A stretch of DNA of 64,000 nucleotides from positions 82,511 through 146,510 of the forward strand of contig JACKGM010000001.1 of the NCBI GenBank assembly GCA_020639315.1, read 5' to 3'. The DNA comes from Candidatus Nomurabacteria bacterium (GTDB lineage Bacteria > Patescibacteriota > Saccharimonadia > JAGOAT01). The stretch's first letter is position 1; the number at the start of each line of letters is the position of its first letter. The position numbers were made by a program, and so were the translations under genes. Below are positions 1 through 50,845 of this stretch, in pieces. The notes below the pieces were generated by a model, which was not told where the DNA came from, ran no database searches, and saw only the letters and a program-made list of their open reading frames with translations.

Positions 1-313
1 CTATAGACCTAACACTTTGTCTTGCCACAATAAATTCTTGATCATGGGCTAAGTAATAGTTCTCTTTCTAAAGAGAGGCTCATCCTTAGATATAGCAAGT
101 TAAAAACAAAATCAGATATTTCTATCAATCACAATTCCTGACCTGGTTCTAGAGTCCATTAGTATGAGTTTTCTTTTTCACCATATCATGGATATGATTC
201 AGTAGAAGTACTCAACTACTGGTTCTCTATTATCTTAGTCAGGGAATTGGATTTTGTTTTGAGCTTGCTATATGTCAGTAATTTAGTGGTAATTCAGGGT
301 GTTGGGCCTATAG
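1..313. mobile_element. Composite MITE-like element, family A (copy A1), carrying a nested family-B' element
   Basis: Terminal inverted repeats CTATAGACCTAACAC (1-15) and GTGTTGGGCCTATAG (299-313). No ORF. A near-identical copy lies in inverted orientation at 5349-5822. The element starts exactly at window position 1. Confidence 0.7.
91..272. mobile_element. Nested MITE-like element, family B' (inside A1)
   Basis: Bounded by TATAGCAAGTTAAAAACAAAAT ... ATTTTGTTTTGAGCTTGCTATA (inverted termini). Central palindrome CCATATCATGGATATGA. Same element at 5390-5572. Confidence 0.65.
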
Positions 314-1026: not shown

Positions 1027-1154
1027 TAGACTCTGTATTCCTCCTCTACCTTATACATCTAATATTCAGCTTATCAATACAGTAACCCTGTTGCCACCCA
1101 AATTTTTGTTTCTTTTTCCATTGCCTCTGGTATTTGAATTGAAACCCTAGGAAA

Positions 1155-1500
1155 TGCGGAGATACTGGATCCCCCGTAAACCCTCTGGGTTTCGGAGGAT
1201 GACAATGCAAATGCGGGAATACTGGATCCCCCGTAAGTTCTCCGAACTTCGGAGGATGACAAGAGAAGAGTCATCTTCGGACTACCCTTTAGGGTAATAC
1301 CGGAGATCCAGTATTTGAATTAGACCCATAATAATGCAAAATACTGGATCCCCCGTAAACCTCTATGAGGATTCGGAGGATGACAACTCACAATGCGGGA
1401 TGCTGGATCCCCCGTAAAATCCTTCGGATTTTCGGAGGATGACAGGAAAGGGACGGGTTTCGGAAGGTGACAATGCAGGGGCAGTTTCGGAGGATGACAA
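1155..1500. repeat. Array of hairpin cassettes (5 full units plus 2 half units)
   Basis: Units ATACTGGATCCCCCGTAA-[variable stem-loop]-TTCGGAGGATGACA at 1162-1204, 1219-1261, 1341-1385 and 1400-1444. One opposite-orientation subtype-2 unit at 1270-1316. Half units (GGGACGGGTTTCGGAGGATGACA type) at 1445-1499. Confidence 0.85.
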
Positions 1501-5346: not shown

Positions 5347-5389
5347 TTCTATAGACCTAACACACTGACTTACCACTAAATTCCTGACC

Positions 5390-5572
5390 TATAGCAAGCT
5401 CAAAACAAAATCCAATTCCCTGACTCAGATAATAGAGAACCAGTAGTTGAGTACTTCTACTGAATCATATCCATGATATGGTGAATAAGAAAACTCATAC
5501 TAATGGACTCTAGAACCAGGTCAGGAATTGTGATTAATAGAAATATCTGATTTTGTTTTTAACTTGCTATAT
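5390..5572. mobile_element. Nested family-B' element inside A2
   Basis: TATAGCAAGCTCAAAACAAAAT ... ATTTTGTTTTTAACTTGCTATA. Inverted copy of 91-272. Confidence 0.65.
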
Positions 5573-5734
5573 AGCATACCCAAAACAAAACCGGACAATT
5601 TGGGATTACTAATAAAGAGCTAGAAAGTTAGTTCTTTATATGAACCTTACTTATAAGTAAGGTGAATAGAAAAACTAGATTTGTAGACTTTAGTAGTGGG
5701 TCAAAAGGCTGGTTTTGTTTTGGGTATGCTATAT
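5571..5734. mobile_element. Nested family-B'' element (third TIR variant)
   Basis: ATAGCATACCCAAAACAAAACCGGACAATTTGGG ... GGTTTTGTTTTGGGTATGCTAT. Same architecture as family B but with diverged termini. Absent from copy A1. Confidence 0.6.
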
Positions 5735-5822
5735 CTAAGGATGGGCCTCTCTTTAGAAAGAGAACTATTACTTAGTCCATGATCAAGAATTTATTGTGGC
5801 AAGACAAAGTGTTAGGTCTATA

Positions 5823-5925
5823 AATCAAATACTGGATCTACCATAAATCCTTACAGGATTTTGGGAGATGACTCTTCTCTTGTCATCCTCCAAAGCTCAA
5901 AGAACTTACCCGAGTACAGGGTTAT
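5823..5925. repeat. Degenerate hairpin-cassette doublet
   Basis: AAATACTGGATCTACC...GGGAGATGAC, then TCTTCTCT, then TGTCATCCTCCAAAGCTCAAAGAACTTACCC. Eroded versions of the subtype-2 and subtype-1 units. Confidence 0.6.
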
Positions 5926-10208: not shown

Positions 10209-10304
10209 TAATTTTAGTATAGCATGCGCAATGCAAAATCCGATACTCTCCCCTTAATAAAACAAAACAAAAATCTACCGTGAAATATACAACTCTTATA
10301 GTAA

Positions 10305-13529: not shown

Positions 13530-13587
13530 ATAGTAATCCTATAACAAGACCAAGTAATAGACTATTTCGCATTGACTAAACCCAATC

Positions 13588-13700
13588 CAAATACTGAATC
13601 TCCGGTATTACCCTAAAGGGTAATCCGAAGATGACTCTTCTCTTGTCATCCTCCGAAACCCGGAGGGTTTACGGGGGATCCAGTATTCTGGCATTTGCAT
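13588..13700. repeat. Head-to-head hairpin-cassette doublet (REPIN-like)
   Basis: Reverse subtype-2 unit (13590-13636), then TCTTCTCT, then forward subtype-1 unit with AAACCC-GGA-GGGTTT inner stem (13643-13690). Confidence 0.85.
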
Positions 13701-13863
13701 TAACCCTGTTGCCATATAACCTCACGGCTTCAAAACTGCCATTTTTGCCCCAGACTAGCAAAACACTTCGCAGCGTAACTCCTGTTATGCTTTGTCGTGT
13801 TTTGGTATTCTGGAATAAAAATCATCAGCTTTGACCTCGCAAGTTTATATGGCAACAGGGTTA
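13701..13863. mobile_element. MITE-like element, family C (copy C1)
   Basis: TIRs TAACCCTGTTGCCATATA / TATATGGCAACAGGGTTA. Internal hairpin GCAAAACAC...GTGTTTTG. Copies at 38250-38412 and 48980-49142 lie in the opposite orientation. Confidence 0.75.
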
Positions 13864-14207
13864 TTGTCATCCTCCGAATTCTCATAGAGGATTACGGGGG
13901 ATCCAGTATTTCTGTATTATCTGTAACTAATACAAATACTGGATCTCCGGTATTACCCTAAAGGGTAATCCGAAGATGACAAGAGGGGATGGATCTCCGA
14001 TAATTTCCTACAGAAATTTGGAAGATGACAGAGTGAGCATTGTCATCCTCCGAAACCCAACCTCTCTCTTGTCATCCTCCGAAGTTCGGAGAACTTACGG
14101 GGGACCCAGTATCCCGCATTTGCATTGTCATCCTCCGAAACCCAACCTCTCTCTTGTCATCCTCCGAAGTTCGGAGAACTTACGGGGGATCCAGTATTTT
14201 GCATTAC
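13864..14207. repeat. Hairpin-cassette array (5 full plus 2 half units), including an 85-nt tandem duplication
   Basis: Units at 13866-13910, 13936-13980, about 13986-14030, 14070-14115 and 14155-14197. The block [half unit + full unit] 14041-14126 is repeated at 14127-14207. About 190 bp of this locus recurs at 14968-15125. Confidence 0.85.
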
Positions 14208-14302
14208 TATAGCAAGCTCAAACCAAAACCGGACAATTTGAGCTGTACTATAGACTCTAGAGTTAGGTCAAAAGTCTGGTTTTGTTTTTAACTTGCTATA
14301 TA
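14208..14302. mobile_element. Family-B MITE, internally deleted short copy
   Basis: Same termini (TATAGCAAGCTCAAACCAAAACCGGAC ... GGTTTTGTTTTTAACTTGCTATA) as the ~165-bp copies but lacks the central ~70 bp. Confidence 0.7.
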
Positions 14303-14313
14303 TGGGAACAGGG

Positions 14314-14742
14314 TTATTTTACCGTGATCGCAAAATTTTCGACCCGCCACTGCTGATCTTCCTTGACTAAAGTAATGGTAATCGTACCAGACTTATCATC
14401 CTCAAATCTAGCATCACCGACAATGCTAGCATGATTATTGACTTCTGTACTATTAATAAACTCCCAGTCAGTAGGGACAGCACTAACCCTAGCATCAAAT
14501 AAAGTCTGGGTCGGCATTGCCTTACTAGCCTGGCTAGAAAGCATCTCCTTTGCCTTTTGGTTTTGCTTACTGCTGATCAACTCTACAAACTGATCAGCTA
14601 CATCTACTACTTCGCCTTTGACCCGATGTTCCCTTTGATCCCCACCAAAAAACTTACCAAAATTCCCCAGGATAAATACTATCCCCACCATCAAAACTAA
14701 TATTATTACAAACATCAGACTACCGAGACCTTTTTTTTGCAT
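14314..14742 (-). CDS. Membrane-anchored hypothetical protein (possibly NTF2-like/DUF4878-type ectodomain)
   Basis: N-terminal TM helix (SLMFVIILVLMVGIVFILG). GGAGGA Shine-Dalgarno upstream. C-terminal TITITLVKEDQQWRVENF beta-rich end. Confidence 0.55.
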   Translation of the reverse strand: MQKKGLGSLMFVIILVLMVGIVFILGNFGKFFGGDQREHRVKGEVVDVADQFVELISSKQNQKAKEMLSSQASKAMPTQTLFDARVSAVPTDWEFINSTEVNNHASIVGDARFEDDKSGTITITLVKEDQQWRVENFAITVK

Positions 14743-14849: not shown

Positions 14850-15160
14850 GGATCGCCTCCGAAACCCGTCTCTCTATTGTCATCCTCCGAAGTCCTCCCT
14901 TGTCCTGTCATCCTCCGAAACCCGCCCCTCTCTTGTCATCCTCCGAAGTTCGGAGAACTTACGGGGGATCCAGTATTTCTGTATTATCTGTAACTAATAC
15001 AAATACTGGATCTCCGGTATTACCCTAAAGGGTAATCCGAAGATGACAAGAGGGGATGGATCTCCGATAATTTCCTACAGAAATTTGGAAGATGATAGAG
15101 GGAGCATTGTCATCCTCCGAAACCCGGAGGGTTTACGGGGGATCCAGTATTTTGCATTAC
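14850..15160. repeat. Hairpin-cassette array with a 28-nt-period half-unit run
   Basis: TGTCATCCTCCGAA starts at 14878, 14906 and 14934 (exact 28-nt spacing). Only the last is completed into a full hairpin (14934-14976). Then two reverse subtype-2 units (15001-15047, 15053-15097) and one forward unit (15108-15152). Confidence 0.85.
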
Positions 15161-15326
15161 TATAGCAAGCTCAAAACAAAACCGGACAATTTGAGCTGTA
15201 CTATAGAGAACTAGAAAGGTAGTTATTCTTAAGAGCCATATCCATAGATATGGTGAGTAAGAAAACTAGCTTTATAGACTCTAGAGTTGGGTCAAAAGTC
15301 TGGTTTTGTTTTTAACTTGCTATATA
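15161..15326. mobile_element. Family-B MITE (full length, ~166 bp)
   Basis: TATAGCAAGCTCAAAACAAAACCGGACAATTTGAGC ... GGTCAAAAGTCTGGTTTTGTTTTTAACTTGCTATA. Central palindrome CCATATCCATAGATATGG. Confidence 0.75.
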
Positions 15327-15373
15327 ATTCAATTCTAGAATCTAGAGCATAGCCCCGAATATCCAGAAATACC

Positions 15374-15436: not shown

Positions 15437-15919
15437 CTATAAGGCAGGCCCTCCATCCATATCTCCCATCCTTGGGCCACCCTGACGATCACCGTGCTTA
15501 CCTCCCATCATCAGATCCCCTTCTGCTACACCTTTGGATTCAAGTAGCTCCTTGAGAGTACCGGACTCTTTGGCTGCAAAGAATTCCTCAGTAGTGATAC
15601 CATACTGATCTAGCTTGGTTTTCAACTCCTGACCACGATCACTATCTAGAAATTCTTGCTGACGCTCATCCTGATAGGCATTCCAGTCATCATCAGAGAT
15701 ATAATTCTGACGAACTGTATCCCGAGCTTCTTTGACCGCAGCCTGCATCTCGGTATGCATTTGATCTACTTGATCTTGAGTGAGATTAAATCGAGTCTCC
15801 AGGTCACTATCATTGACCCTTGCTCCGTCTCCTCCAAAATGAGCACTGACACTAGTCGCACCGATCGTAGTTGCACCGATCAATCCGACTGCCCCTAAGA
15901 CTAAACTCTTCTTTAACAT
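15437..15919 (-). CDS. Secreted hypothetical protein
   Basis: Signal-peptide-like N-terminus MLKKSLVLGAVGLIGATTIGATSVSA. AAGGAGAG Shine-Dalgarno. Helical, D/E/Q-rich body with a Gly/Met-rich tail. Confidence 0.55.
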   Translation of the reverse strand: MLKKSLVLGAVGLIGATTIGATSVSAHFGGDGARVNDSDLETRFNLTQDQVDQMHTEMQAAVKEARDTVRQNYISDDDWNAYQDERQQEFLDSDRGQELKTKLDQYGITTEEFFAAKESGTLKELLESKGVAEGDLMMGGKHGDRQGGPRMGDMDGGPAL

Positions 15920-20156: not shown

Positions 20157-20168
20157 AGTTTTAATATT

Positions 20169-20332
20169 TATAGCAAGTTAAAAACAAAACCAGACTTTTG
20201 ACCCAACTCTAGAGTCTATAAAGCTAGTTTTCTTACTCACCATATCTATGGATATGGCTCTTAAGAAGAACTACCTTTCTAGTTCTCTATAGTACAGCTC
20301 AAATTGTCCGGTTTTGCTTTGAGCTTGCTATA
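20169..20332. mobile_element. Family-B MITE (inverted orientation relative to 15161-15326)
   Basis: TATAGCAAGTTAAAAACAAAACCAGACTTTTGACC ... GGTTTTGCTTTGAGCTTGCTATA. Confidence 0.75.
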
Positions 20333-20456
20333 TCTAGCTTAGATTATATCATCAAAACTAGTTGGTGTCTTGGTCGAACGCCTAGCATAGAGCTTGAGAG
20401 TAGCGACCGAGCTTGCTGATCATTATCAACTACTCTGATATTAGTTCCAAATCCTC

Positions 20457-21544: not shown

Positions 21545-22085
21545 GGTGGGATACTGGATCCCCCGTAATCCTCTATGAGGTTTCGGAGGATGACTAATGC
21601 GCGAGATACTGGATCCCCCGTAAGTTCTCTGAACTTCGGAGGATGACAAGGCAAGGGACGGGTTTCGGAGGATGACTAGACAAGGGACGGGTTTCGGAGG
21701 ATGACAATGCCCTTTCCCGTGTCATCCTCGACTTTTCCGCCCTTCATTTGAAGGAAAAGTTGGGGGATCCAGAACTCTAGATAATGGGTTAGGTGATACA
21801 GTTTAATTTATGTTTATTGTTAGTTTTCTGGATACCCAGAGCAAGCTCTAAGTATGACGAATACAAGTGCAAAATACTGGATCCCCCGTAAACCCTTCGG
21901 GTTTCGGAGGATGACAATGCCCTTTCCGGTGTCATCTTCGGATTTCTCCAAGGGAGAAATACCGGAGATCCAGTATTTGAGTTAGACCCATGGAAGTGCG
22001 AGATACTGGATCCCCCGTAAGTTCTCTGAACTTCGGAGGATGACAAGGCAAGGGACGGGTTTCGGAGGATGACAGGAGAGGGGCG
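21545..22085. repeat. Large intergenic mosaic: about 6 full hairpin units, 3-4 half units, module D
   Basis: Reverse units at 21551-21595, 21607-21651, 21875-21918 and 22003-22047. Forward long-stem variant at 21720-21775. Forward subtype-2 unit at 21930-21978. Half units AAGGGACGGGTTTCGGAGGATGAC three times. Module D at 21778-21870. Confidence 0.85.
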
Positions 22086-22149
22086 AGGATTCAATCAATG
22101 ACGATTTATTGTCACTACTATTGACAGGCTATCCTATCTGTGGGACAAT

Positions 22150-25374: not shown

Positions 25375-25955
25375 AAATACTGGATCTCCGGTATTTATCT
25401 TTTAGAGAAATCCGAAGATGACGAAGAAGAGGCGGAAATTTGGTTTGGTGACCCAATTCCTGTCATCCTCCGAAACTGCCCCTGTATTGTCATCCTCCGA
25501 AACCTGCCTCTCTCTTGTCATCCTCCGAAGTTCAGAGAACTTACGGGGATCCAGCATCTTTGCATTTGCATTCGTCATACTCAGAGCTTGCTCTGGGTAT
25601 CCAGAAACAACAACAAACATTAAAAGTAACTGGGTTAATTTAAGTGCATTATCTAGAGTTATGGATCCCCAACTTTTCCTTCAAGTGAAGGGCGGAAAAG
25701 TCGAGGATGACTCGACTCTTGTCATCCTCCGAAACCTGCCTCTCTTGTCTTCCTCCGAAGTTCGGAGAACTTACGGGGGATCCAGTATTCTGGCATTGTG
25801 CATTGTCTTCCTCCGAATTCTCCTTGAGAGAATTACGGGGGATCCAGTATCTCGCATTTCTGGAATCCAATCCAGATACTGGATCTCCGGTATTTCTCTA
25901 AAGAGAAATCCGAAGATGACAGGAGGAGGGTATTATCATCCTCCGAAACTCCGAA
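25375..25955. repeat. Large intergenic mosaic: about 7 full hairpin units, about 4 half units, inverted module D
   Basis: Subtype-2 reverse units at 25377-25423 and 25873-25920. 28-nt-spaced half units 25452-25507 ending in full unit 25508-25555. Forward units at 25745-25790 and 25808-25853. Long-stem variant at 25661-25712. Confidence 0.85.
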
Positions 25956-26001
25956 GGATATACATATGTACATTAATAGAATTGTATGATAGGATAGACA
26001 T

Positions 26002-26292
26002 ATGAGCTATCAAGTAAGTGCTCCGATCAGTACCAAGGTATTTCGCAATGGCAACAGTAGGGCTTTGAGAATTCCTAGCACAACCTTACCTGATATTCAG
26101 CCGGGGGATATAGTAGAAGTAATATTGAGAAAAAAGAAGCAAGCGCGAGCTGGATGGGATCAACAGTTTAAGACAGCGGTTGCGAAGTCTAACAAAGTTG
26201 TCAGTGACCAATACGGTCAGCTCGATAATGACTGGGCAATATCGGATGGGCTAGATAGGGAGGAAGATTGGGGGTTTGTTGATCAAGGTTGA
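26002..26292 (+). CDS. mazE: AbrB/MazE-type antitoxin
   Basis: N-terminal swapped-hairpin motif VFRNGNSRALRIPS. 96 aa. Overlaps the downstream MazF-type gene by 17 nt. Confidence 0.7.
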   Translation: MSYQVSAPISTKVFRNGNSRALRIPSTTLPDIQPGDIVEVILRKKKQARAGWDQQFKTAVAKSNKVVSDQYGQLDNDWAISDGLDREEDWGFVDQG

Positions 26293-26605
26293 AAGAGGAG
26301 CGATCTATATGGCTTATCTCGATCCTGTGGTCGGTAGAGAGCAACGAGGCAGAAGGCCAGTGGTGGTGATTTCACCTAGTGAGATTCAGGATAATCTGGA
26401 TCGAGCAATAGTAGTACCATTTACTACTCAGAAAAAAGACTACCCTACTTATTGGAGTTATAAGCTAAAGGGCAAGACTAGTTACGCTATGCTTGATCAG
26501 ATTAGGACTTTGGATTTGAAACGTTTGCAAAATAAAGTGACTGAGTTGTCATCTGTTGAGCTCGCTAGATTGCTAGCTCGGGTTCAGGAATTGTTTGCTG
26601 TCTAA
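26276..26605 (+). CDS. mazF: MazF/PemK-family mRNA interferase toxin
   Basis: RGAIYMAYLDPVVGREQRGRRPVVVISP and ...MLDQIRTLDLKRL are typical of PemK/MazF. Confidence 0.85.
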   Translation: MLIKVERGAIYMAYLDPVVGREQRGRRPVVVISPSEIQDNLDRAIVVPFTTQKKDYPTYWSYKLKGKTSYAMLDQIRTLDLKRLQNKVTELSSVELARLLARVQELFAV

Positions 26606-26619
26606 TTGGTTGTATTGTG

Positions 26620-26745
26620 CCTTGTCATCCTCCGGTCAAATACTGGATCTCCGGGATTTCTCTAAAGAGAAATCCGAAGATGACAGGAGGAGGGCATTGT
26701 CATCCTCCGAAGTTCGGAGAACTTACGGGGGATCCAGTATTCGGC
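26620..26745. repeat. Hairpin-cassette doublet between the convergent mazF and rpmB genes
   Basis: Reverse subtype-2 unit 26640-26686, then GGAGGAGGGCAT, then forward subtype-1 unit 26698-26742. Confidence 0.85.
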
Positions 26746-26791
26746 ATTGTGTATCATTATCTCTTGAAAACAATGATAGAGGTATGGTTCG

Positions 26792-28246: not shown

Positions 28247-30475
28247 TTATTTCACCCACCACCCAAAGGTCGAACCTTGACCATTACTGACTGGGGAGGA
28301 GAAAAAGATTCCTCCTCCGTGATCTTCTGTCACTCTCTTGACTAGATAGATACCTAGACCTGTGCCATCACTTCTAGTTCTTTGGGCATTGTCTGCTCGA
28401 TAGAATTTAGAGAAGAGTTTGGCTTGTTTGTCAGGAGGTACACCGATACCAGTGTCTGTCACCTGAAAGACTGGGTAGAGGACACTCTCTAGGTCCCCAC
28501 TGAAGTCTGGCTTGGAAGCGATGTCTGAGGATTGGATGATTGCTTTTAATTCGCTTACGCTTAGAAGCTTAAGAGTTAGCTTGATTGTTCCCTCTTGGGT
28601 ATAGTAGATAGCATTATCAATTAGATTCATCACTGCTTGACGGATTTTGGCTTTGTCTAAAGCTTGAGGGGGGATGTCTTCAAGGTCTGTTACTAGCCTT
28701 AACCCCTTGTCCTCAATACTAGGGATTAGATTCTCTAGCTCTTGCTTGATTAGTTCCTTGAGGTCTACTGCTTCTCTCTGGATGAAGAATCGATCTTGGG
28801 AGATTCTTGAGACATTGAGTAGGTCGTTGATGGTAGAATCCATATTGCCGACAGTGGTCATAATCCTTCTAGCAGCCATTGTTTGATCTGAGGTAGCCTT
28901 ACCTAGCTCTCCGGTGATAAAGAGGTCACTATAGCCCCTAATCGTAGTGATTGGGGTCTTTAGTTGATGAGATGCCATTGAGAGGAATTCATCCTTGGCT
29001 TTGTCTAGAGCTCTTAGGTTCTTGTTGGCAGTGCGGAGTTTTTCGGTAGCAGACTTAACTTTATGCTGGAGAGTGACATTGAAGTCTTCGATTTTAGCTA
29101 CTGCTAGGGCATTGTCTAGGGCGATTGCTAAATCATTTGAAACAATTGAGAGAGTGGAGTAATCTAAGCTATTGTAGATGTCACCACTTCTCTTTCCGCC
29201 TAAAAGTAAGTAGCCATTGAGTTTTTTGTTGTTTACTAGGGGGAAGATCATACTGAGGCTATTTTTCTGCATGAAAAACTTTTTGTCGCTCTCAGTCAAC
29301 TCGTCATAGACCGCAGGTTCTTTACCGAAGAGTTGGGGTACTTGACTAATCTCACCATATGATCTGAATAGTCCCTTCTTGCCTGATTTCATAAAGTTTT
29401 GGTTGTTTCTAAAGTATTCTTGACCATCATCGTCTAAGACTAGTATGTTACCTCTCTCGGTTTTGATCGTAGTGTAGATCAGGGCTAGAGTCTTACTAGC
29501 GATTGGGGCAAGCTTGTAATTGGAAGAATAGACATCTCCTAGCTTAGTCAATAGAGCTTGAGCATCATAACGATTTCTAAAGAATAGTTGATCGGTCAAT
29601 CTCTCAAAGAACTTTCTTAGGATTGGGAAGGTCAGGGCTAGGAGGGTGGCTAGGAGGATGTAGGCAACCAACTTGGCTACAGTAAATGTATTGTCGTCCT
29701 CCAGTACTAGTCCAATTCCAAAAAATAAAACAGCACTATAAAGCAAGACTAAGCTAAAGAGAGTAACGGTATAGAAAAAGGATCTCGCTAAAGTTGCCCG
29801 GATATCAAAAAGCTGTCTTTTTGATATCGCAAAAGCATTAAAAGTCGAAAATATGATCAGGAGCAAAGGAGCAGAACGAATACTCCAGCTGATACCAAAC
29901 ACTACTGGCATAATAATATTGGTAGTTACCCCTAGGTTGATAATAACGATTAACCCGATGGCAATCAGCTTGAGCTGGCTTTTCTGATAAATATCTACTT
30001 GCTGATAGGCAACTCGAAAAGCCAAAGCGGTATAAAATACCAAAATCATGAAGCTCACTGCATACAAGGGGAACAAATCACCCGTGATCGGCTTACTTGG
30101 AGCTGTCGTAATATCTACTCCACTAATTATCTGCTCTGATACTAGCGTCACGAAGGCCATAATGCCTGCCATCGAGATCACAAGATAATGCTGATACTTG
30201 CTCATAGGCTTACGCATGAAGACTGTTGCTAGCCCAAAGACTGATCCGACGATCATATAGCTAAAGCTGTAACCAAGCCGATGCCCAAACAGCTTGAGGT
30301 CATAGCTAGCACCATAATCACTAATATATGTCCCGATCAACCAAACGATTGAGCTAAGATTGGACAAAGCATACCACTGAATCGCTCGGGCATGATAATT
30401 GCGCAAAAGAATTACTAGCCCGACAATCCCGACAGTAGTGATCGCGAGTCCGCTAAGCAAAGTATAGTTATCCAT
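28247..30475 (-). CDS. Sensor histidine kinase HK1 (polytopic ~7-8 TM sensor, GAF-like, HisKA, HATPase_c)
   Basis: H-box SHQLKTPITTIRGY, N-box NLIDNAIYYT, G-boxes DTGIGVP / GTGLGIYLV. Start placed at ATG 30475 (MDNYTLLSG); GTG 30520 is an alternative. The C-terminal ~470 aa are identical to HK3. Confidence 0.85.
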   Translation of the reverse strand: MDNYTLLSGLAITTVGIVGLVILLRNYHARAIQWYALSNLSSIVWLIGTYISDYGASYDLKLFGHRLGYSFSYMIVGSVFGLATVFMRKPMSKYQHYLVISMAGIMAFVTLVSEQIISGVDITTAPSKPITGDLFPLYAVSFMILVFYTALAFRVAYQQVDIYQKSQLKLIAIGLIVIINLGVTTNIIMPVVFGISWSIRSAPLLLIIFSTFNAFAISKRQLFDIRATLARSFFYTVTLFSLVLLYSAVLFFGIGLVLEDDNTFTVAKLVAYILLATLLALTFPILRKFFERLTDQLFFRNRYDAQALLTKLGDVYSSNYKLAPIASKTLALIYTTIKTERGNILVLDDDGQEYFRNNQNFMKSGKKGLFRSYGEISQVPQLFGKEPAVYDELTESDKKFFMQKNSLSMIFPLVNNKKLNGYLLLGGKRSGDIYNSLDYSTLSIVSNDLAIALDNALAVAKIEDFNVTLQHKVKSATEKLRTANKNLRALDKAKDEFLSMASHQLKTPITTIRGYSDLFITGELGKATSDQTMAARRIMTTVGNMDSTINDLLNVSRISQDRFFIQREAVDLKELIKQELENLIPSIEDKGLRLVTDLEDIPPQALDKAKIRQAVMNLIDNAIYYTQEGTIKLTLKLLSVSELKAIIQSSDIASKPDFSGDLESVLYPVFQVTDTGIGVPPDKQAKLFSKFYRADNAQRTRSDGTGLGIYLVKRVTEDHGGGIFFSSPVSNGQGSTFGWWVK
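28255..29662. repeat. 1408-bp direct repeat, copy 1 (3' part of HK1)
   Basis: Base for base the same, as far as I can compare by eye, as 32611-34018 (constant offset 4356). The antisense ORFs 28674-28886 and 33030-33242 are identical. Confidence 0.85.
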
Positions 30476-32618
30476 CACTTCTCCTAGTATATGGTATCCA
30501 AACTCCGAAGACCGAACCACCTTCTGGACTGATAGGTGATCTAAAAATCACATTGCCATAATGGATTCTAGCGATTTCTCGTACTAGGTATATACCTAGC
30601 CCATTACCATCTGGTCTGACTGTCTTGGCATTGCTGGCTCGGTAAAATTTAGTAAATAGTTGCTTTTGTTTGCTCTCAGGTACCCCAATCCCAGTATCAG
30701 TGACATAAAAAGCTAGGTATTTACGACGAGGAGCGATTGCTTCTCCACCTAGAGACCCCAGCTGACGAAGTTGGCTACCAGTCAAGACTTTTGCTGATAC
30801 CCTGATCTGACCTCGGTCAGTATACTGAATTGCATTATCTATCAGATTGATTACTACTTGCCTCAGTTTGCCACCATCAGCAAAGATCTTGATTGGCTCT
30901 GGCAAATCAAGTATTAGATCCAAACCTTGCTTGATTGAAACTTTCCGATAGTGATACTCTTCCTCGACCATAGCACCAAAATCAAAGCTAGCTTTACTAA
31001 TCACCAATCTACCTTGAGCCAATCTAGAAGTAGCGAGCAGGTCCTCCAATAACTGGTTCATGTTTTGACCAGCTTGATTGATCTGACTGAGGATCTGCTT
31101 TTGCTCTGAGGTAATATGACCAAACTCTCCGTCAACCAACATCTCACTATACCCCCTGATCGTAGTGAGTGGAGTTCTAAGCTGATGTGATGCGATCGAG
31201 ATAAACTCATCCTTACTTTTGTCCAAGGCCTTGAGCTTTTCTAGGGTATCTTTCAGACGGTAATTAACCTTGGCATTATCTAGGGCAACCGCCAAATCTC
31301 CAGCTACTATTTCAATCGTTTGATAGTCATTTTCGGTATATATATCGCGACTCACTTTTTGACCAAGCACAATATGTCCGACTAGTTTACCCTTAAGAAT
31401 CATTGGAAAAATCAGTTCTGCCCCCTGACTCTTTAATTGATGCAAGGTAGCAGTATCCAAAATATGATCGACAAATATCACCTCATCCTTCAGGTAATGC
31501 CAATTCTTGGTATTAAAAATCTTATAATTAGTTGCATGGCTAAATGCAATCCGATTATGCTCATAGACAATTATCTGCAGATTCTCAAGTCCCATCTGGT
31601 CTACTATGACCTTTGCAGTATCCTTGATCATGGCTTCAAGCTTGAGATCTCTTGCTAAAATCCTACTGACTTCTCCAATCAATTGACCAGGATAGTAGTG
31701 ATAATGGTAAAACCACTTATAAGTATTTTTTTCAAAAAATCCAAGCATCGGCTGAAATAGTACGGCCAAGATAATAATGATCGGAATGAAGGCTAAGCGC
31801 TCAGGAGTAGTCAGCTTATGATCAAGACCAATTAAGCTTCCTAGATAATAACTTGCAAATAAACTGTAGATAATTGCTAATACAATGACTGCTACGCTAA
31901 AAGCCAAAGACCTACTAAAGATTAGTTTGAGATCGAATATCTTGTTTCTGAGGATTACATAAGAGTTGACAATCACCATCCCCGCCATTACAAATAATCC
32001 GATTTGACTGACCCAACCGTCGTTGATTAGGCTTGGCAAGACCAAGTTGGTCAAGACTACCAGGCTAATCCCGGTAGCATAAGTGGTCAGCATTACCTTG
32101 ATCTGAATCTTTTTGACATTTTCGACAGTATCCATTGCCCTGAGTAAATTTCTAATCGAAGGCAAAAGGACTGCAAACAAAATCACCACAAAGCTCCAAT
32201 AGTATCTACCCTTTTGGTCTACCAAAAACCCATCTTGATTCTGATAGCCTGCGACTACCTGATCAGTCAAGAGAATAGCCGAGTAAACCAATCCAAAAAT
32301 CCAAAGTTTGATCTTGCCAAGCCGGCTAAAGGGTTTGATTTCTCCCAAGTAAGCCCGACTCATTCCATAAAAAGCAATGATTGATAAAAACCCAAAAACA
32401 AATGTCAGGCGATTAGCAAAAATCGTGATCTGATCGCTAATAAACAAGCTTGCTACCAATGTAGCAACCTGCCAAAGCCCTCCAGTCAAAGCAAAGCCTA
32501 GAAACCAATGTGAAAGTCTACGATTCATCCCCCGCTTGAATACTAATCCACCAAAAACAAAGAGGATTAAAACTGGGATAATCGAAGTGATGACTATCTG
32601 ATTCACTTGACCCACCAC
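30468..32618 (-). CDS. Sensor histidine kinase HK2 (same architecture, diverged paralogue)
   Basis: H-box SHQLRTPLTTIRGY, NLIDNAIQYT, DTGIGVP, GNGLGIYLV. An alternative start GTG 32606 would give a GTGA overlap with the HK3 stop. Confidence 0.85.
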   Translation of the reverse strand: MVGQVNQIVITSIIPVLILFVFGGLVFKRGMNRRLSHWFLGFALTGGLWQVATLVASLFISDQITIFANRLTFVFGFLSIIAFYGMSRAYLGEIKPFSRLGKIKLWIFGLVYSAILLTDQVVAGYQNQDGFLVDQKGRYYWSFVVILFAVLLPSIRNLLRAMDTVENVKKIQIKVMLTTYATGISLVVLTNLVLPSLINDGWVSQIGLFVMAGMVIVNSYVILRNKIFDLKLIFSRSLAFSVAVIVLAIIYSLFASYYLGSLIGLDHKLTTPERLAFIPIIIILAVLFQPMLGFFEKNTYKWFYHYHYYPGQLIGEVSRILARDLKLEAMIKDTAKVIVDQMGLENLQIIVYEHNRIAFSHATNYKIFNTKNWHYLKDEVIFVDHILDTATLHQLKSQGAELIFPMILKGKLVGHIVLGQKVSRDIYTENDYQTIEIVAGDLAVALDNAKVNYRLKDTLEKLKALDKSKDEFISIASHQLRTPLTTIRGYSEMLVDGEFGHITSEQKQILSQINQAGQNMNQLLEDLLATSRLAQGRLVISKASFDFGAMVEEEYHYRKVSIKQGLDLILDLPEPIKIFADGGKLRQVVINLIDNAIQYTDRGQIRVSAKVLTGSQLRQLGSLGGEAIAPRRKYLAFYVTDTGIGVPESKQKQLFTKFYRASNAKTVRPDGNGLGIYLVREIARIHYGNVIFRSPISPEGGSVFGVWIPYTRRSDG

Positions 32619-34834
32619 CCAAAGGTCGAACCTTGACCATTACTGACTGGGGAGGAGAAAAAGATTCCTCCTCCGTGATCTTCTGTCACTCTCTTGACTA
32701 GATAGATACCTAGACCTGTGCCATCACTTCTAGTTCTTTGGGCATTGTCTGCTCGATAGAATTTAGAGAAGAGTTTGGCTTGTTTGTCAGGAGGTACACC
32801 GATACCAGTGTCTGTCACCTGAAAGACTGGGTAGAGGACACTCTCTAGGTCCCCACTGAAGTCTGGCTTGGAAGCGATGTCTGAGGATTGGATGATTGCT
32901 TTTAATTCGCTTACGCTTAGAAGCTTAAGAGTTAGCTTGATTGTTCCCTCTTGGGTATAGTAGATAGCATTATCAATTAGATTCATCACTGCTTGACGGA
33001 TTTTGGCTTTGTCTAAAGCTTGAGGGGGGATGTCTTCAAGGTCTGTTACTAGCCTTAACCCCTTGTCCTCAATACTAGGGATTAGATTCTCTAGCTCTTG
33101 CTTGATTAGTTCCTTGAGGTCTACTGCTTCTCTCTGGATGAAGAATCGATCTTGGGAGATTCTTGAGACATTGAGTAGGTCGTTGATGGTAGAATCCATA
33201 TTGCCGACAGTGGTCATAATCCTTCTAGCAGCCATTGTTTGATCTGAGGTAGCCTTACCTAGCTCTCCGGTGATAAAGAGGTCACTATAGCCCCTAATCG
33301 TAGTGATTGGGGTCTTTAGTTGATGAGATGCCATTGAGAGGAATTCATCCTTGGCTTTGTCTAGAGCTCTTAGGTTCTTGTTGGCAGTGCGGAGTTTTTC
33401 GGTAGCAGACTTAACTTTATGCTGGAGAGTGACATTGAAGTCTTCGATTTTAGCTACTGCTAGGGCATTGTCTAGGGCGATTGCTAAATCATTTGAAACA
33501 ATTGAGAGAGTGGAGTAATCTAAGCTATTGTAGATGTCACCACTTCTCTTTCCGCCTAAAAGTAAGTAGCCATTGAGTTTTTTGTTGTTTACTAGGGGGA
33601 AGATCATACTGAGGCTATTTTTCTGCATGAAAAACTTTTTGTCGCTCTCAGTCAACTCGTCATAGACCGCAGGTTCTTTACCGAAGAGTTGGGGTACTTG
33701 ACTAATCTCACCATATGATCTGAATAGTCCCTTCTTGCCTGATTTCATAAAGTTTTGGTTGTTTCTAAAGTATTCTTGACCATCATCGTCTAAGACTAGT
33801 ATGTTACCTCTCTCGGTTTTGATCGTAGTGTAGATCAGGGCTAGAGTCTTACTAGCGATTGGGGCAAGCTTGTAATTGGAAGAATAGACATCTCCTAGCT
33901 TAGTCAATAGAGCTTGAGCATCATAACGATTTCTAAAGAATAGTTGATCGGTCAATCTCTCAAAGAACTTTCTTAGGATTGGGAAGGTCAGGGCTAGGAG
34001 GGTGGCTAGGAGGATGTAAGTTGCCTGCTGGATTGGAGAAATCTCCCGACCGAGTGGGAATATCCAGAGAGTTGCCCCATAGCCTATGACTATGAATAGG
34101 ATTGCAATTAGGGTGAGAGTGAGGTAGTAGAATAGTGCCCGGACGGTCCATTTGTTGATGTCAAATAGCTTATATTTAGCAATGCTATAACTTGTACTAC
34201 CAACAAGCACAATAGAAAATAGTGGACCAAGTTTAGATAAAGCCCAGTTGCCGGTGATGATTGGTATTATGCCATTTGTAATAGACGCAAAAAAAGCAAA
34301 AATAACCGTTCCGATGATTATATATTTAATCTGATTTTTCTTATCATCATATATCGTATCCAAAGACCTATACCCATTAATAAGGTTTCTAAAAAAAGCT
34401 ATTAAGAAAACCACCAAAGTACCTATATAAACTATATATAGATTATTAAACTCTGGATGGAAGCCAGTATTATCCACGCTTGCTCCAATAATCATAAGGT
34501 CAGAGAAAGCAAGGATACAGGCTAGTATCGAAGAGGTTAAAATAATAACCCTATCATACCTAGATAGAACATTATATATAAATACTTTTGAAAAACTCCA
34601 AATCAATAGTACTAAAAAGTACGCCGAAAAAAAAGCTACTCTGTTAAAAAAATACTTTAACTCAAAGGTGCTAGCAAAGTCTGTATAATAGTTACTGATT
34701 ATCCACACACTAGTAGCTATCGAAAAAATAAAATATATAATATAGTTTATTCCTTTTTGATTCCTAATATATGTAAAGTAACCCAACAGAGAGTTTAGTA
34801 GGGATATCACTATAACCAATAAGAATAACACCAT
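32603..34834 (-). CDS. Sensor histidine kinase HK3 (distinct polytopic sensor; cytoplasmic module identical to HK1)
   Basis: N-terminal ~270 aa are unrelated in sequence to HK1 but equally polytopic. From YILLATLLALTFPILRKFF onward identical to HK1. Confidence 0.85.
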   Translation of the reverse strand: MVLFLLVIVISLLNSLLGYFTYIRNQKGINYIIYFIFSIATSVWIISNYYTDFASTFELKYFFNRVAFFSAYFLVLLIWSFSKVFIYNVLSRYDRVIILTSSILACILAFSDLMIIGASVDNTGFHPEFNNLYIVYIGTLVVFLIAFFRNLINGYRSLDTIYDDKKNQIKYIIIGTVIFAFFASITNGIIPIITGNWALSKLGPLFSIVLVGSTSYSIAKYKLFDINKWTVRALFYYLTLTLIAILFIVIGYGATLWIFPLGREISPIQQATYILLATLLALTFPILRKFFERLTDQLFFRNRYDAQALLTKLGDVYSSNYKLAPIASKTLALIYTTIKTERGNILVLDDDGQEYFRNNQNFMKSGKKGLFRSYGEISQVPQLFGKEPAVYDELTESDKKFFMQKNSLSMIFPLVNNKKLNGYLLLGGKRSGDIYNSLDYSTLSIVSNDLAIALDNALAVAKIEDFNVTLQHKVKSATEKLRTANKNLRALDKAKDEFLSMASHQLKTPITTIRGYSDLFITGELGKATSDQTMAARRIMTTVGNMDSTINDLLNVSRISQDRFFIQREAVDLKELIKQELENLIPSIEDKGLRLVTDLEDIPPQALDKAKIRQAVMNLIDNAIYYTQEGTIKLTLKLLSVSELKAIIQSSDIASKPDFSGDLESVLYPVFQVTDTGIGVPPDKQAKLFSKFYRADNAQRTRSDGTGLGIYLVKRVTEDHGGGIFFSSPVSNGQGSTFGWWVK
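32611..34018. repeat. 1408-bp direct repeat, copy 2 (3' part of HK3)
   Basis: See 28255-29662. The last three codons and stop differ just outside the repeat (GTG AAA TAA versus GTC AAG TGA). Confidence 0.85.
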
Positions 34835-37603: not shown

Positions 37604-37854
37604 ATGTCGGACCTAACTGTCCACAAGGCAAAAACCCATTTATCGAAAATCCTTCACCAAGTAGACCAAGGAAAAGAGTTCACTATCTACCGAGGTGACC
37701 AGCCAGTAGCCTTACAAACCTCGATCCCTAAACACAAAAAAAACAGCGTTCACCCGGTCTATGGCAAGACCCAGACAGTCCTATTAGCCCCGATCAACAG
37801 CTAGAGAGTCCTGACAATGCTGATACTATCATAGCTGAAATGTTCAATTCATGA
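37604..37854 (+). pseudogene. Phd/YefM-type antitoxin, frameshifted in an A8 run
   Basis: N-terminus MSDLTVHKAKTHLSKILHQVDQGKEFTIYRGDQPVA. Adding one A to the A8 run 37736-37743 restores ...GLWQDPDSP...AEMFNS*, ending in TGA 37852-37854, which forms ATGA with the toxin start. Confidence 0.6.
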
Positions 37855-38239
37855 ACAAGTACTTATTGGATACTCATATTCTGCTCTGATGGCTCTATGA
37901 TAGCAATAAACTTTCCAAAGATCATAGAGGGATTATTACCGACCCGATCAACAATGTTTTTTCTCAGCTATTAATATCTGGGAGATACTCTTAAGCTACA
38001 AGCTTGGTAAGCTGAAATTAACCGACTCAAATATTGATTCTTTAGCCAATCTTAGCTCCCTAACAGACCTACAAGAACTTAGCCTATCTACCAGCCACTT
38101 AGTGACCTTCCAGGAGATTGATTTCAAATATAATGACCCTTTTGACAACATCCTAATCTCCCAAGCAATAGCAGAAGATCTGACCCTACTAACCGTAGAC
38201 CGGAATATTCTTGACCAAGGTCTAGCCAAGACCTGCTAG
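37851..38239 (+). pseudogene. vapC: PIN-domain VapC-type toxin, inactivated (nonsense plus frameshift)
   Basis: MNKYLLDTHILL*WLYDS (TGA at 37887-37889, where family members have Trp). Frameshift in the T6 run 37957-37962. The shifted frame reads FFSAINIWEILLSYKLGKLKL...DPFDNILISQAIAEDLTLLTVDRNIL, the typical VapC C-terminus. Confidence 0.7.
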
Positions 38240-38249
38240 CTAGGACCAA

Positions 38250-38412
38250 TAACCCTGTTGCCATATAAACTTGCGAGGTCAAAGCTGATGATTTTTATTC
38301 CAGAATACCAAAACACGACAAAGCATAACAGGAGTTACGCTGCGAAGTGTTTTGCTATTCTGGGGCAAAAATGGCAGTTTTGAAGCCGTGAGGTTATATG
38401 GCAAAAGGGTTA
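38250..38412. mobile_element. MITE-like element, family C (copy C2)
   Basis: TAACCCTGTTGCCATATAAAC ... TATATGGCAAAAGGGTTA. Inverted relative to C1. Confidence 0.75.
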
Positions 38413-38436
38413 ATGTCTAGATCGGGAATTTAGTGG

Positions 38437-38598
38437 TATAGCAAGCTCAAAACAAAACCGGACAATTTGAGCTGTACTATAGAGAACTAGAAAGGTAGTT
38501 CTTCTTAAGAGCCATATTCATAGATATGGTGAGTAAGAAAACTAGCTTTATAGACTCTAGAGTGGGGTTAAAAGTCTGGTTTTGTTTTTAGCTTGCTA
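38437..38598. mobile_element. Family-B MITE inserted into a fragment of a family-A arm
   Basis: The flanks GGAATTTAGTGGTA and CAAGTCAGTGTGTTGGGTCTGTAAC correspond to the family-A arm GGAATTTAGTGGTAAGTCAGTGTGTTAGGTCTATAG. Confidence 0.7.
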
Positions 38599-38602
38599 CA
38601 AG

Positions 38603-40861
38603 TCAGTGTGTTGGGTCTGTAACTACATACATGATGGTTAATGCCAATCTAATACCCCGGTCAAAGCCATCGACTCGGCTTGGGTTATCTTTATATGTCT
38701 CTTGATGTAATCTTATAAGATCGTAAATATACCTAGACAATACTGGGTCGCTATCTACTAACCTAGATATCTCCATATAGTCATAGCTCAATATAACTGA
38801 TAACTTTTCCATATTTACCTGATCAATATCTAAATGTTCTAATCCTACCTCTGACCTGCCAAAATAATGACTAGACAAATGAGCTTCACTATGCAACCTA
38901 AGGTCGGCTGACTTTTCTAATGCAAGCTTCTCAAGGGCGGGACTTAAAGCGTGGTGTTTTCGCAAAAAACAAAATATTTCCATCGCCCCAAGGTAGCCCA
39001 CTTTAAACCCCTCTATGTATTGTTTTATATCCTTAGAATCTATTGGTAAATCCAGCCTACCAAGCATCTTTAAAAACTTACTCTCCCTCTCCAATATTTC
39101 CCCCAAAAATCGGTATTTACCAAATAAAGCTATTGTACTCTCACTAAGTCTTATCTCGTCAGGTCTAGTTAAATAATCATTGGCTAGTAGGTTACTATCA
39201 GACGAATCATAGTGATGGTCATAGAGCTCCATTAGCAGCTTAGGTTCTCGAGTCAAATCTACTATAACCCTTTCTAGCCCCCGGAATAATCCAGGGTCAC
39301 TTTCATCAGAACAAGTCACATTGATTTCAAGCCGTTTACCTGTAATATTTAGTAGTATCCTCAACCCAGGTGTGCTATCGATATCAAGCAAGCAAAAGAT
39401 TACAAATTTACTTTTCTTTGGCTCAATTTCAGATATAAGATGAACCAAATGCTCTAGCATCGCACCCAACTGTCTCCTATCTATAATATCAGGAATCGAA
39501 TTATCAAACTCAATAGCCACATTATCCCAATGATATTCACTATTAATCTTACCCTTACCTTGATCTATAACCTCTAAAATTCTACCCCCTAGATCAATAA
39601 CCTCAAACTCTGACCCGTGTACAAGTCCTTGTCCTAATTCCTGACATAAACCACCCCTAAGCTCTTCTATATATAATCCCAAAAAGTTAACCCCTAGATC
39701 AAACCCTGTTTCGAGTGCACCCAACGAACTCTCAACCTCTAGTTTAGCCTGTGTTCCTAGTACCCACTTGGCCAAATCAGTATACTTTGTGAGACTTAAT
39801 TGGCTCAATGTGACTTGATAGCTGTTCAAAATAAAGTCTTCCCTGTTGACCAACTCGCTCACCTCCTTTATCTTCTCAGGATTGAGCAACCAGCCAAACC
39901 CGGGATACTCATTACTTTTTGTGCGTTCTGTACTTAATTCTTCGGCATTAAGCAATAAAGCCATTGTCGCTACGCCCAAAGTAAAGCCGTGAGTAATACT
40001 CAATTCTTCTAATTCAGGACTCTCTATCTCACAGCAACTTTCATAGTAACTTTTCCAGACCTCAAACCATCCGCTTGCATATATTCCATGTCCTATTTCC
40101 CAGATAGTCTCGATGCTAGATGGTTCAAGGTTAAACCCAAGGGCGCATCTACTCAAATCATGCGAAATCCCTGAATCTTCGGGAGGCAAGCCTGAAGTAC
40201 CCGAGGTTTCGCCTAAGTAGGGTTTATCCTTAGATAACCTATCTACACTTCTTGCTTGTATTGTTTTCTGTTTATCTTGCAAATCGATCAAAACCTTCAA
40301 TAAGCAAAAGGCTAGATCAACCCCTTGTAAGTATGACAGTAAATTCTCTTCCTTAGTGCCTAGAATACTGACTCCGGTTTGAGCCTCAAACGCATCTTTG
40401 ATAGCTCTTGCTATATAAGGAAATCTAGAGCTAAGATCCATTGAGTTTAGTACTTCGCTGAAGCTTAGATCCATATCTTTCCCACCTGATAAGCCTAACT
40501 CTGCCCTCAAACTACCACAATCCATAATAATCTGCTCAACCGATAGCCCCTTATCCTCTGCTAAGATATAGGACATCAACCCAAGCCCAAATCTATAACC
40601 ACTACCGACCAACCCATCTGAGTCTTCTCCTAACAAATCATTACTAAGCTGTTCCCACAGCTTACCCCAGCCTGATCCTAGTAATTCTTCACTCATTGAA
40701 TAAATATCTTGATAGACCTTTGGAGTAAACTCAGCTTCAGACTTTGAATTTGGGTACTCTTCCATCTTGCTACTCAACCTATATCCACTGAAACCTAGAC
40801 CCCAATGCATTGTTAAAAAAATCAGATATTGATTCTCTAAAATCATAGAATTGTTGAACAA
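38603..40861 (-). CDS. Large acidic repeat protein (752 aa), unassigned family, paralogue of 41249-43567 and 43592-44275
   Basis: Recurring module: GSGYRFGLGLMSYIL, THGFTLGVATMALLL, ETGFDLGVNFLGLYI, IEGFKVGYLGAMEIF, VDGFDRGIRLALTIMYVV (C-terminal). No TM or signal peptide. The start is uncertain (TTG 40861, or ATG 40846/40810/40765). Confidence 0.65.
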   Translation of the reverse strand: MFNNSMILENQYLIFLTMHWGLGFSGYRLSSKMEEYPNSKSEAEFTPKVYQDIYSMSEELLGSGWGKLWEQLSNDLLGEDSDGLVGSGYRFGLGLMSYILAEDKGLSVEQIIMDCGSLRAELGLSGGKDMDLSFSEVLNSMDLSSRFPYIARAIKDAFEAQTGVSILGTKEENLLSYLQGVDLAFCLLKVLIDLQDKQKTIQARSVDRLSKDKPYLGETSGTSGLPPEDSGISHDLSRCALGFNLEPSSIETIWEIGHGIYASGWFEVWKSYYESCCEIESPELEELSITHGFTLGVATMALLLNAEELSTERTKSNEYPGFGWLLNPEKIKEVSELVNREDFILNSYQVTLSQLSLTKYTDLAKWVLGTQAKLEVESSLGALETGFDLGVNFLGLYIEELRGGLCQELGQGLVHGSEFEVIDLGGRILEVIDQGKGKINSEYHWDNVAIEFDNSIPDIIDRRQLGAMLEHLVHLISEIEPKKSKFVIFCLLDIDSTPGLRILLNITGKRLEINVTCSDESDPGLFRGLERVIVDLTREPKLLMELYDHHYDSSDSNLLANDYLTRPDEIRLSESTIALFGKYRFLGEILERESKFLKMLGRLDLPIDSKDIKQYIEGFKVGYLGAMEIFCFLRKHHALSPALEKLALEKSADLRLHSEAHLSSHYFGRSEVGLEHLDIDQVNMEKLSVILSYDYMEISRLVDSDPVLSRYIYDLIRLHQETYKDNPSRVDGFDRGIRLALTIMYVVTDPTH

Positions 40862-41094: not shown

Positions 41095-41240
41095 AAATAC
41101 TGGATCCCCCGTAAGTTCTCCGAACTTCGGAGGATGACAATGCCCTCTGTATGTCATCTTCCAAATTCCTGTAGGAAATTATGGGAGATCCAGCATTTGA
41201 ATTGAAGCCTCAGAAATGCAAAATACTGGGTCCTGACTAT
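41095..41240. repeat. Hairpin-cassette doublet plus a partial unit
   Basis: Reverse unit 41098-41140, then ATGCCCTCTGTA, then forward subtype-2 unit 41150-41195. Partial reverse unit near 41224. Confidence 0.8.
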
Positions 41241-48474: not shown

Positions 48475-48480
48475 ATCTGT

Positions 48481-48486
48481 ATTTTA
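48481..48486 (-). promoter_or_regulatory. -10 box TAAAAT, 6 nt upstream of the thrS ATG (no room for a T-box or other leader)
   Basis: Minus-strand TTACCT, 17 nt, GCTAAAATACAGATATG. Confidence 0.5.
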
Positions 48487-48534
48487 GCATAAGTAAACTG
48501 CCAAGGTAATTATATCCTCTTGTATTTCGGGCAT

Positions 48535-48780
48535 TAGTCATCCTCCGAAACTCCACCCCTCCTCTGTCATCCTCCGAAGTTCGGAGAACTTACGGGGGAT
48601 CTAGGGCATTAGTCATCCTCCGAAACTCTGAAAGAGTTTACGGGGGACCCAGTATTTCGCATTTCAGGTAACCAATCCAAATACTGGATCTCCGGTATCT
48701 CTCCCTTGGAGAAATCCGAAGATGACAGGAGAGGGTGGATCTCCGGTATTTCTCTCCGGGTAATCCGAAGATGACAGAGG
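48535..48780. repeat. Hairpin-cassette array between the divergent thrS and tRNA-Lys genes
   Basis: Half unit near 48538. Forward units at 48566-48600 (truncated) and 48609-48655 (inner stem AAACTCT-GAA-AGAGTTT). Two reverse subtype-2 units at 48680-48775. Confidence 0.8.
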
Positions 48781-48820
48781 ATGGTATCAAGTCGCTCTGT
48801 AAATGAAGGGAATAATCTGG

Positions 48821-48826: not shown

Positions 48827-48836
48827 CGCAGGGTGT

Positions 48837-50840: not shown

Positions 50841-50845
50841 CAGGG

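Follow-up and report, generated by a model that had tools for sequence, protein, structure and literature searches.

Nested, TA-flanked hairpin elements of three families in a 64-kb stretch of a candidate-phyla-radiation genome are probably MITEs moved in trans

Short elements with inverted termini that lie within one another, far from any evident transposase, raise the question of whether they have been mobile and, if so, of which enzyme moved them. We addressed this question in a 64-kb stretch of bacterial DNA (the window), where the initial annotation had described three such families, A, B and C, as nested MITEs. Copies were inventoried by alignments and profile searches of the window, which yielded two A copies, three B copies and one deleted B, two copies of the subfamily B', one of the subfamily B'' and three C copies (Table 1). 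The profile search places 11 copies or remnants at eight loci, and the copies of the three families are dispersed across 49 kb in both orientations. Their termini occur far more often than in shuffled sequence: the A terminus CTATAGACCTAACAC presents 4 matches at up to two mismatches (0.17 expected), the B terminus 14 (0.00 expected) and the C terminus 8 (0.03 expected), confirming that the families are real and lie where they had been described. Four solo C remnants had also been reported. Two of them are convincing (Table 1), and the other two, at 5916-24 and 50840-48, are 9-10-mers only, too short to call; the 9-mer of the C terminus is enriched overall, with nine matches, four of them solo, against 0.49 expected.

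Table 1. Positions of the elements, their parts and the short hairpin arrays (window numbering unless stated otherwise).
Feature	Position	Strand	Remarks
A1, family-A element with one B' insert	1-313	+	Left flank beyond the window edge; left arm 1-90, TA 91-92, B' 93-270 (reverse orientation), TA 271-272, right arm 273-313
Solo C terminus	1083-1096	+	14 nt exact, TAACCCTGTTGCCA
A2, family-A element with B' and B''	5349-5823	-	Alignment and profile search; starts 3 nt past the NUDIX stop codon; right arm 5349-5389, TA 5390-5391, B' 5392-5569, shared TA 5570-5571, B'' 5572-5731, TA 5732-5733, left arm 5734-5823
B' copies, with flanking TAs	91-272 and 5390-5571
B'', with both flanking TAs	5570-5733	+	Perfect 23-nt termini TATAGCATACCCAAAACAAAACC
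Possible degraded solo B-like terminus	10218-10255	+	Weak, nhmmer E = 0.004
C copy	13701-13863	-	TA at either end
B copy, internally deleted	14208-14300	+	71 bp lost between TATAGA direct repeats
Solo C terminus	14299-14316	-	17/18 match; its inner TA is the flanking TA of the deleted B copy
B copy	15161-15324	+	TA 15161-2, element 15163-15322, TA 15323-4
B copy	20169-20332	-	Ends 12 nt short of the start codon of VIT1
C copy	38250-38412	+	Adjoins the A-arm remnant directly
Right-hand A arm split by B	38413-38625	+	Arm 38413-38436 and 38601-38625; B 38437-38600
C copy	48980-49142	+	Between tRNA-Lys and the DinB-like gene
Short hairpin arrays	400-510, 1130-1500, 5830-5910, 13560-14200, 14850-15150, 21550-22100, 25380-26750, 41095-41240, 48530-48790, 50640-50860
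Short hairpin units beyond the window	L023 14340-14479, 15268-15386; L029 6427-6553, 13495-13561

The elements are small and structured. Including the flanking TAs, B measures 164 bp, B' 182 bp, B'' 164 bp and C 163 bp, and the core of A is 133 bp once its inserts are taken out. All are bounded by terminal inverted repeats, 14-23 nt long, and the pairing runs on through the whole element, every copy forming one end-to-end hairpin of -53 to -80 kcal/mol (RNA energy parameters). The reading frames are rich in stop codons, the longest stop-free frame spanning 56 codons, and concatenated MITE-derived pseudo-ORFs found no match in a set of 5.8 billion proteins. A, B and C are thus non-coding and within the size range of MITEs (about 100-300 bp). 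An Rfam search of the window placed no family at the elements, its matches being two tRNAs only. Copies of B are 96-99% identical to each other, the two B' copies 98%, the C copies 93-99% and the two A cores 93%; between the subfamilies B, B' and B'', identity drops to 59-76%. The high identity of the B copies fits a recent spread.

The seven B-type copies have 14 ends, of which 13 are flanked by a TA dinucleotide and one by CA. Because the termini themselves start TA-rich, the comparison of filled with empty sites is the proper test of a target-site duplication, and three such comparisons are available. First, A2 and A1 can be aligned throughout save for one block of 162 bp (160 nt plus TA). 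The empty junction of A1 reads ...CCTTAGA-TA-TAGCAAGTT... and the filled junction of A2 reads ...CCTTAGA-TA-[TAGCATACCC...GGGTATGCTA]-TA-TAGCAAGTT..., indicating that B'' entered a TA already flanking B' and duplicated it. Second, the A arm GGAATTTAGTGG-TA-AGTCAGTGTGTT is whole in A1 and A2 and is split at this same TA by the B copy at 38437, whose left TA is intact and whose right TA has mutated to CA. Third, the B copy at 15161 is precisely missing, with a single TA left, from ENA ERZ28655789 (scaffold_27012, 99.6% identical to the window over 1875 bp) and from ERZ27309317 (k141_440034, 98.7% identical). These two contigs follow the window from position 17197 or 16013 as far as 15323 and read ...GAATTA-TA-GTAAC..., where the window reads ...GAATTA-TA-[B]-TA-GTAA...; removing B and one TA in silico rebuilds the empty junction at 50 of 52 nt. 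Since the two sides of the junction have only the TA in common and two assemblers agree, a mis-join by the assembler is implausible.

The B copy at 15161 is a presence/absence polymorphism between strains that are about 99% identical, and the three comparisons together indicate that the elements are mobile and that B moved recently. Two of the checks that the initial annotation had proposed were positive: the TA duplication is consistent in all three filled/empty comparisons, which concern the B family, and insertion polymorphism appeared in assemblies of two near-identical strains. The 2-bp duplication is seen for the B family; A and C show TA flanks only, and their TA could formally belong to the terminus. 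TA being palindromic, a 2-bp duplication is also formally indistinguishable from an element that carries one TA along.

Several insertions recur in independent assemblies. The B copy at 20169 was found in ERZ27309329, and the C terminus at 49122-49142 occurs in contigs of GCA_020428505.1, as does the A2 arm, which a Logan contig carries too. Two short-read contigs break within the terminus of the B copy at 20169, and a short-read contig of a near-identical MAG stops inside the terminus of the C copy at 48980, as expected for multi-copy DNA. An assembly artefact is ruled out by the presence of the same insertions in independent assemblies.

The nesting that had been described was upheld in its main lines, A1 carrying B' and A2 carrying B' together with B''. 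One qualification applies: B'' occupies no new point of A and instead abuts B' at a shared TA. The further B copy within an A arm does lie at a different point, since that arm is split at another TA. A1 and A2 agree in the TA that B' occupies and in its orientation, which implies either that the composite was copied and one copy then gained B'', or that B'' was precisely lost from A1. The divergence between A1 and A2 is uneven (6 of 43 positions in the right A arm and 6 of 272 in the rest), so some recombination between A variants is likely.

No transposase accompanies these elements. As the initial annotation had reported from the reading frames, a domain search found no transposase family in any ORF of at least 100 aa of the 64-kb window, even at E-values of 0.1-1; none of the Pfam families listed for the remaining window ORFs is a transposase, and short ORFs in three longer spacers, judged by eye, are unlike transposase fragments. 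An autonomous partner would be expected to be bounded by the end sequences TAGCAAGCTCAAAAC.., TAGACCTAACAC.. or ACCCTGTTGCC.., and no autonomous element with matching termini was found, which leaves the TA duplication as the one feature that points to an IS630/Tc1-mariner enzyme. What marks out Tc1/mariner/IS630 transposition is its exclusive targeting of TA, which it duplicates (PMC2170065), and insertion into TA with a 2-bp duplication is what we observed. Bacterial MITEs have been defined as elements of less than 200 bp with inverted termini, TA ends, target duplication and a long stem-loop (PMC2229807). The properties of A, B and C match this definition as well as the precedent of RUP and IS630-Spn1 (PMC2229807), which argues for the MITE reading already proposed in the initial annotation, as do the dispersed non-coding copies in both orientations and their insertion into one another.

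We conclude, with a probability of roughly 0.8, that A, B (with B' and B'') and C are non-autonomous, TA-duplicating MITEs moved in trans by an IS630/Tc1-mariner-type transposase that is encoded elsewhere or has been lost. By this scenario, a transposase supplied in trans would cut the elements at their inverted termini and paste them into TA dinucleotides, duplicating the TA; the enzyme would be a DDE transposase of the IS630/Tc1-mariner type whose gene lies elsewhere in the genome or has already disappeared. The TATA-rich termini and flanks would offer further targets, such that new copies would land in or beside older ones and produce nested or abutting structures, the TA that flanks a resident copy being as good a target as any other.

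It is also conceivable, though unlikely, that the elements are TA-duplicating MITEs mobilised by another enzyme: a transposase of the IS5 family (IS427 group), a PIF/Harbinger-like one or an undescribed one, C possibly relying on an enzyme other than that of A and B. Duplications of TA (2 bp) have also been reported for the IS427 group of IS5. Neither pattern scans nor BLAST against plasmids and phages returned a partner of any type for the present elements. A and B have the terminal TA-TAG in common, and this is absent from C, which ends TA-ACCC (its element sequence starting ACCC); C may therefore use a different enzyme. The insertion sites speak against such a mobiliser: TA is the sole feature that they share, with no CTAG or TNA context. 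Moreover, PIF/Harbinger and IS1031 elements duplicate 3 bp and not the 2 bp seen here, and the documented partners of TA-flanked MITEs, as for RUP, are of the IS630 type (PMC2229807).

The hairpin arms themselves raise a further question. Among the 67 predicted pairs of B, B' and B'', 20 are changed on both sides, and 94% of pair cells are still paired in spite of a sequence divergence of 25-40%. Slid controls gave 0-4 such pairs, and none of 500 shuffles reached the observed values. As it involves three independent lineages only, this covariation is no proof of selection. It is not predicted by a simple origin from a deleted IS, and it has one of three explanations: the palindrome was regenerated at the birth of each subfamily (e.g., by fold-back copying of one end), the arms were homogenised, or the hairpin plays a role in transposition or in some function of the host. 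The preserved pairing and the lack of a nearby transposase leave room for a reading that we regard as quite improbable, in which the whole-length hairpin is itself under selection or the substrate of transposition. The elements would then have spread in a CPR epibiont by a hairpin-dependent route or through an outside enzyme (from a phage or the host bacterium), or a regulator-poor genome would have recruited them as structured regulatory modules. Should the genome lack the partner transposase, one may ask who mobilises these elements in an obligate epibiont.

REP/BIME sequences are 20-40-nt imperfect palindromes with a conserved 5' tetranucleotide, arranged in alternating orientation and associated with a RAYT gene. 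It is in principle conceivable that a Y1 (HUH) transposase moved the hairpins in single-stranded form, as with IS200/IS605-derived palindromes or REP/BIME with RAYT, the TA being part of a fixed target or cleavage motif. Whole-length hairpins with arms that covary between subfamilies would fit this mechanism, as would a REP-like family of 45-nt hairpins in the same spacers and the two B copies found directly after TTAC. These last two, at 14208 and 15161, lie at the same position GCATTAC-TA beside different short-hairpin units, which suggests a local site preference, but TTAC does not precede the remaining B sites, and the left flanks differ (TTAC, TAGA, GTGG, GACA). The ends are symmetric and inverted, unlike the asymmetric left and right ends of IS200/IS605; TA flanks both ends and one TA is kept at empty sites, and no Y1 transposase was found in the 64-kb window. 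A, B and C thus lack the IS200/IS605 combination of asymmetric ends, subterminal hairpins, absence of duplication and a fixed tetranucleotide. Nor do they resemble REP/BIME, being single dispersed units of 133-182 bp, far above REP size. These observations render a Y1 mechanism very improbable.

That the elements are structured RNA genes or regulatory hairpins (terminators, stabilisers) spread by duplication or recombination, with the fold under selection, hardly seems credible: the 20 compensatory pairs (controls 0-4, no shuffle reaching 20) and the location of copies in spacers beside gene ends would agree with it, but not their precise presence or absence with TA duplication, their insertion into one another, their two orientations relative to neighbouring genes, the disruption of the 3' end of one gene or the absence of any Rfam match, and a regulatory side-effect, though possible, would not explain the spread.

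The MITE reading with an IS630/Tc1-mariner-type enzyme can be set against known systems. The RUP elements of Streptococcus pneumoniae are likewise small and non-coding, with inverted termini and TA insertion, often into mobile elements, and their mobilisation in trans is attributed to an IS630-family transposase, that of IS630-Spn1 (PMC2229807). RUP is 107 bp long, however, with short termini matching a resident IS, whereas the present elements are whole-length palindromes of 133-182 bp with termini of 15-23 nt, without similarity to RUP, and no IS partner was found. ISY100, an IS630-family element of Synechocystis, inserts almost exclusively into TA with TA duplication, and its imperfect 24-bp termini are thought to suffice in cis, such that short derivatives can be mobilised (PMC2170065); unlike A, B and C, it is a 947-bp autonomous element with its own transposase, and the window holds no such element. 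The ERIC/IRU sequences of enterobacteria are imperfect whole-length palindromes of about 127 bp with TA termini and target duplication, lie in spacers, have no known transposase and, for ERIC, are co-transcribed with their neighbours (PMC2229807). ERIC differs in sequence and host lineage and constitutes one old family with few recent insertions, in contrast to the three unrelated families with subfamilies, nesting and strain polymorphism described here. The Correia/NEMIS elements of Neisseria share a size of 107-155 bp, inverted termini, TA duplication and sites that are empty or filled depending on the strain, and their RNA hairpins affect neighbouring genes (PMC2229807); Correia elements, however, have 24-26-bp termini and no full-length hairpin, and carry IHF and promoter motifs. 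Finally, the Stowaway elements of plants show TA duplication, a propensity to form hairpins, trans-mobilisation by mariner-like transposases and frequent MITE-in-MITE nesting, but they are eukaryotic, number in the thousands and have termini related to known transposases, whereas A, B and C reside in a bacterium whose genome is very small. Nested MITE insertions have been described in maize and rice.

We then considered how widely the elements are distributed. An exact-pattern scan with the degenerate B terminus gave 7, 12 and 1 isolated matches in one genome per GTDB species, JGI metagenomes and IMG/VR, respectively, and since BLAST revealed no similarity beyond the 23-mer, all of these matches are attributable to chance. 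The C terminus had no match in IMG/VR, and BLAST of the composite elements returned none among plasmids and phages. In a relative about 78% identical (GCA_017983775.1), the syntenic 38 kb contains no A, B or C and has diverged too far to be used as an empty site. On the available evidence, the three families are confined to the present species-level lineage. A search of the accessible literature returned no paper tying MITEs to Saccharibacteria, Patescibacteria or the candidate phyla radiation (CPR). The elements are therefore of a known kind, MITEs, in a lineage for which we found no report, and they share no sequence with anything searched. What makes them of interest is the host lineage, their density, an activity that can be shown to be recent, and the covariation of the arms.

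The proteins of the window are identical to MCB98344xx-98345xx (locus tags H6792_004xx), labelled Candidatus Nomurabacteria bacterium, and also to those of GCA_020428505.1, labelled Candidatus Saccharibacteria bacterium. The genomes of CPR bacteria are usually described as small and streamlined. By its identical NCBI proteins the source is a CPR bacterium, in agreement with the small streamlined genome presumed in the initial annotation, and the gene content (aminoacyl-tRNA synthetases, PGK, KsgA, MscL, histidine kinases and many proteins without a family match) fits such a host. A cyanobacterial origin, which the style of the repeats and the GC content of 42% could suggest, is discounted by these protein identities. 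Coding sequences and tRNAs occupy 53.8 kb and leave 10.2 kb of spacer, of which A, B and C represent 1.95 kb (19% of the spacer and 3% of the window) and other repeated DNA a further 3.4 kb (33% of the spacer). Over half of the spacer DNA in the window thus consists of repeats, in a lineage described as streamlined, and one family or more has moved so recently that strains about 99% identical differ in an insertion. These repeats fragment the short-read genome bins of the lineage, whose contigs end inside the termini. The repeats also generate spurious ORFs, offer strain markers, and alter gene ends and 5' leaders.

Hairpins of about 45 nt, which with other non-MITE repeats make up about one third of the spacer DNA, form a separate family. 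One type of unit has the invariant frame ACTGGATC-CCCCGTA..stem-loop..TTCGGAGGATGAC, another reads GGATCTCCGGTATTACCCTAAAGGGTAATCCGAAGATGAC, and we counted 25 strict matches and about 40 loose ones. Their inner stem varies with both sides changed (AAGTTC/GAACTT, AAACCC/GGGTTT, AAAATCC/GGATTTT, AAACTCT/AGAGTTT), and units are frequently paired inversely into palindromes of about 95 bp. The family resembles REP/BIME, no RAYT gene being found in the window, and is common to the 78%-identical relative. The lengths of its arrays differ between strains whose genes are 99.6% identical. In the strain without the B copy at 15161, a single hairpin unit comes after the gene at 15437-15919, and beyond it lie about 135 nt of AT-rich unique sequence, followed by the 3' end of a giant gene that sits 35 kb away in the window (positions 1865-2170 of the ERZ28655789 contig and 680-872 of the ERZ27309317 contig, compared with 15100-15330 and 50843-50945 of the window). 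Judging from these alignments, this arrangement looks like a rearrangement with break points in hairpin arrays.

Some repeats touch neighbouring genes. The A-arm remnant at 38601-38625 encodes the last 7 or so codons (..TDPTH) and the stop of ORF 38603-40861(-), a 752-aa frame without a family match, indicating that insertion remodelled the 3' end of this gene. A promoter-like site, AAGACA-17-TATAAT (10/12), lies just upstream of the B copy at 20169-20332 on the same strand (region 20157-20371); if this predicted promoter is used, the 164-nt B hairpin would sit in the 5' leader of VIT1. Reading through the short hairpin arrays yields spurious ORFs, such as 25418-26005(+) and 1074-1274(-), with the recurring peptide LSSSEVRRTYGGSSI. 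Likewise, the first 44 codons of ORF 49292-50695(-) are a spurious N-terminal extension from a hairpin array, the DinB-like protein on record starting at 50563 (423 aa).

Other features of the window were noted along the way. The relative carries a TyrRS gene between tRNA-Lys and ThrRS (L029 6220-8119), a position at which the window has hairpin arrays only (48475-48836); besides its own 100%-identical entry, this TyrRS has no homolog above 47% identity in the protein collection. A MazF/PemK toxin gene, 26276-26605(+), is located within a hairpin-array spacer, and possible toxin-antitoxin pieces recognised by eye comprise an antitoxin-like ORF of 66 aa and a short ORF whose end immediately precedes the C copy at 38250 (37604-37804(+) and 38102-38239(+)). 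Two of three tandem histidine-kinase genes (ORFs 28247-30520 and 32603-34834) share a 300-nt block that is 100% identical (28251-28550 and 32607-32906), and their translations are identical over roughly the C-terminal 450 residues, which points to a recent duplication or gene conversion. Finally, the giant ORF 50846-63985(-) encodes 4379 aa with FG-GAP and DUF11 repeats, and at 59050-59997 it contains at least five tandem units of 162 nt (54 aa) that are 82-94% identical.
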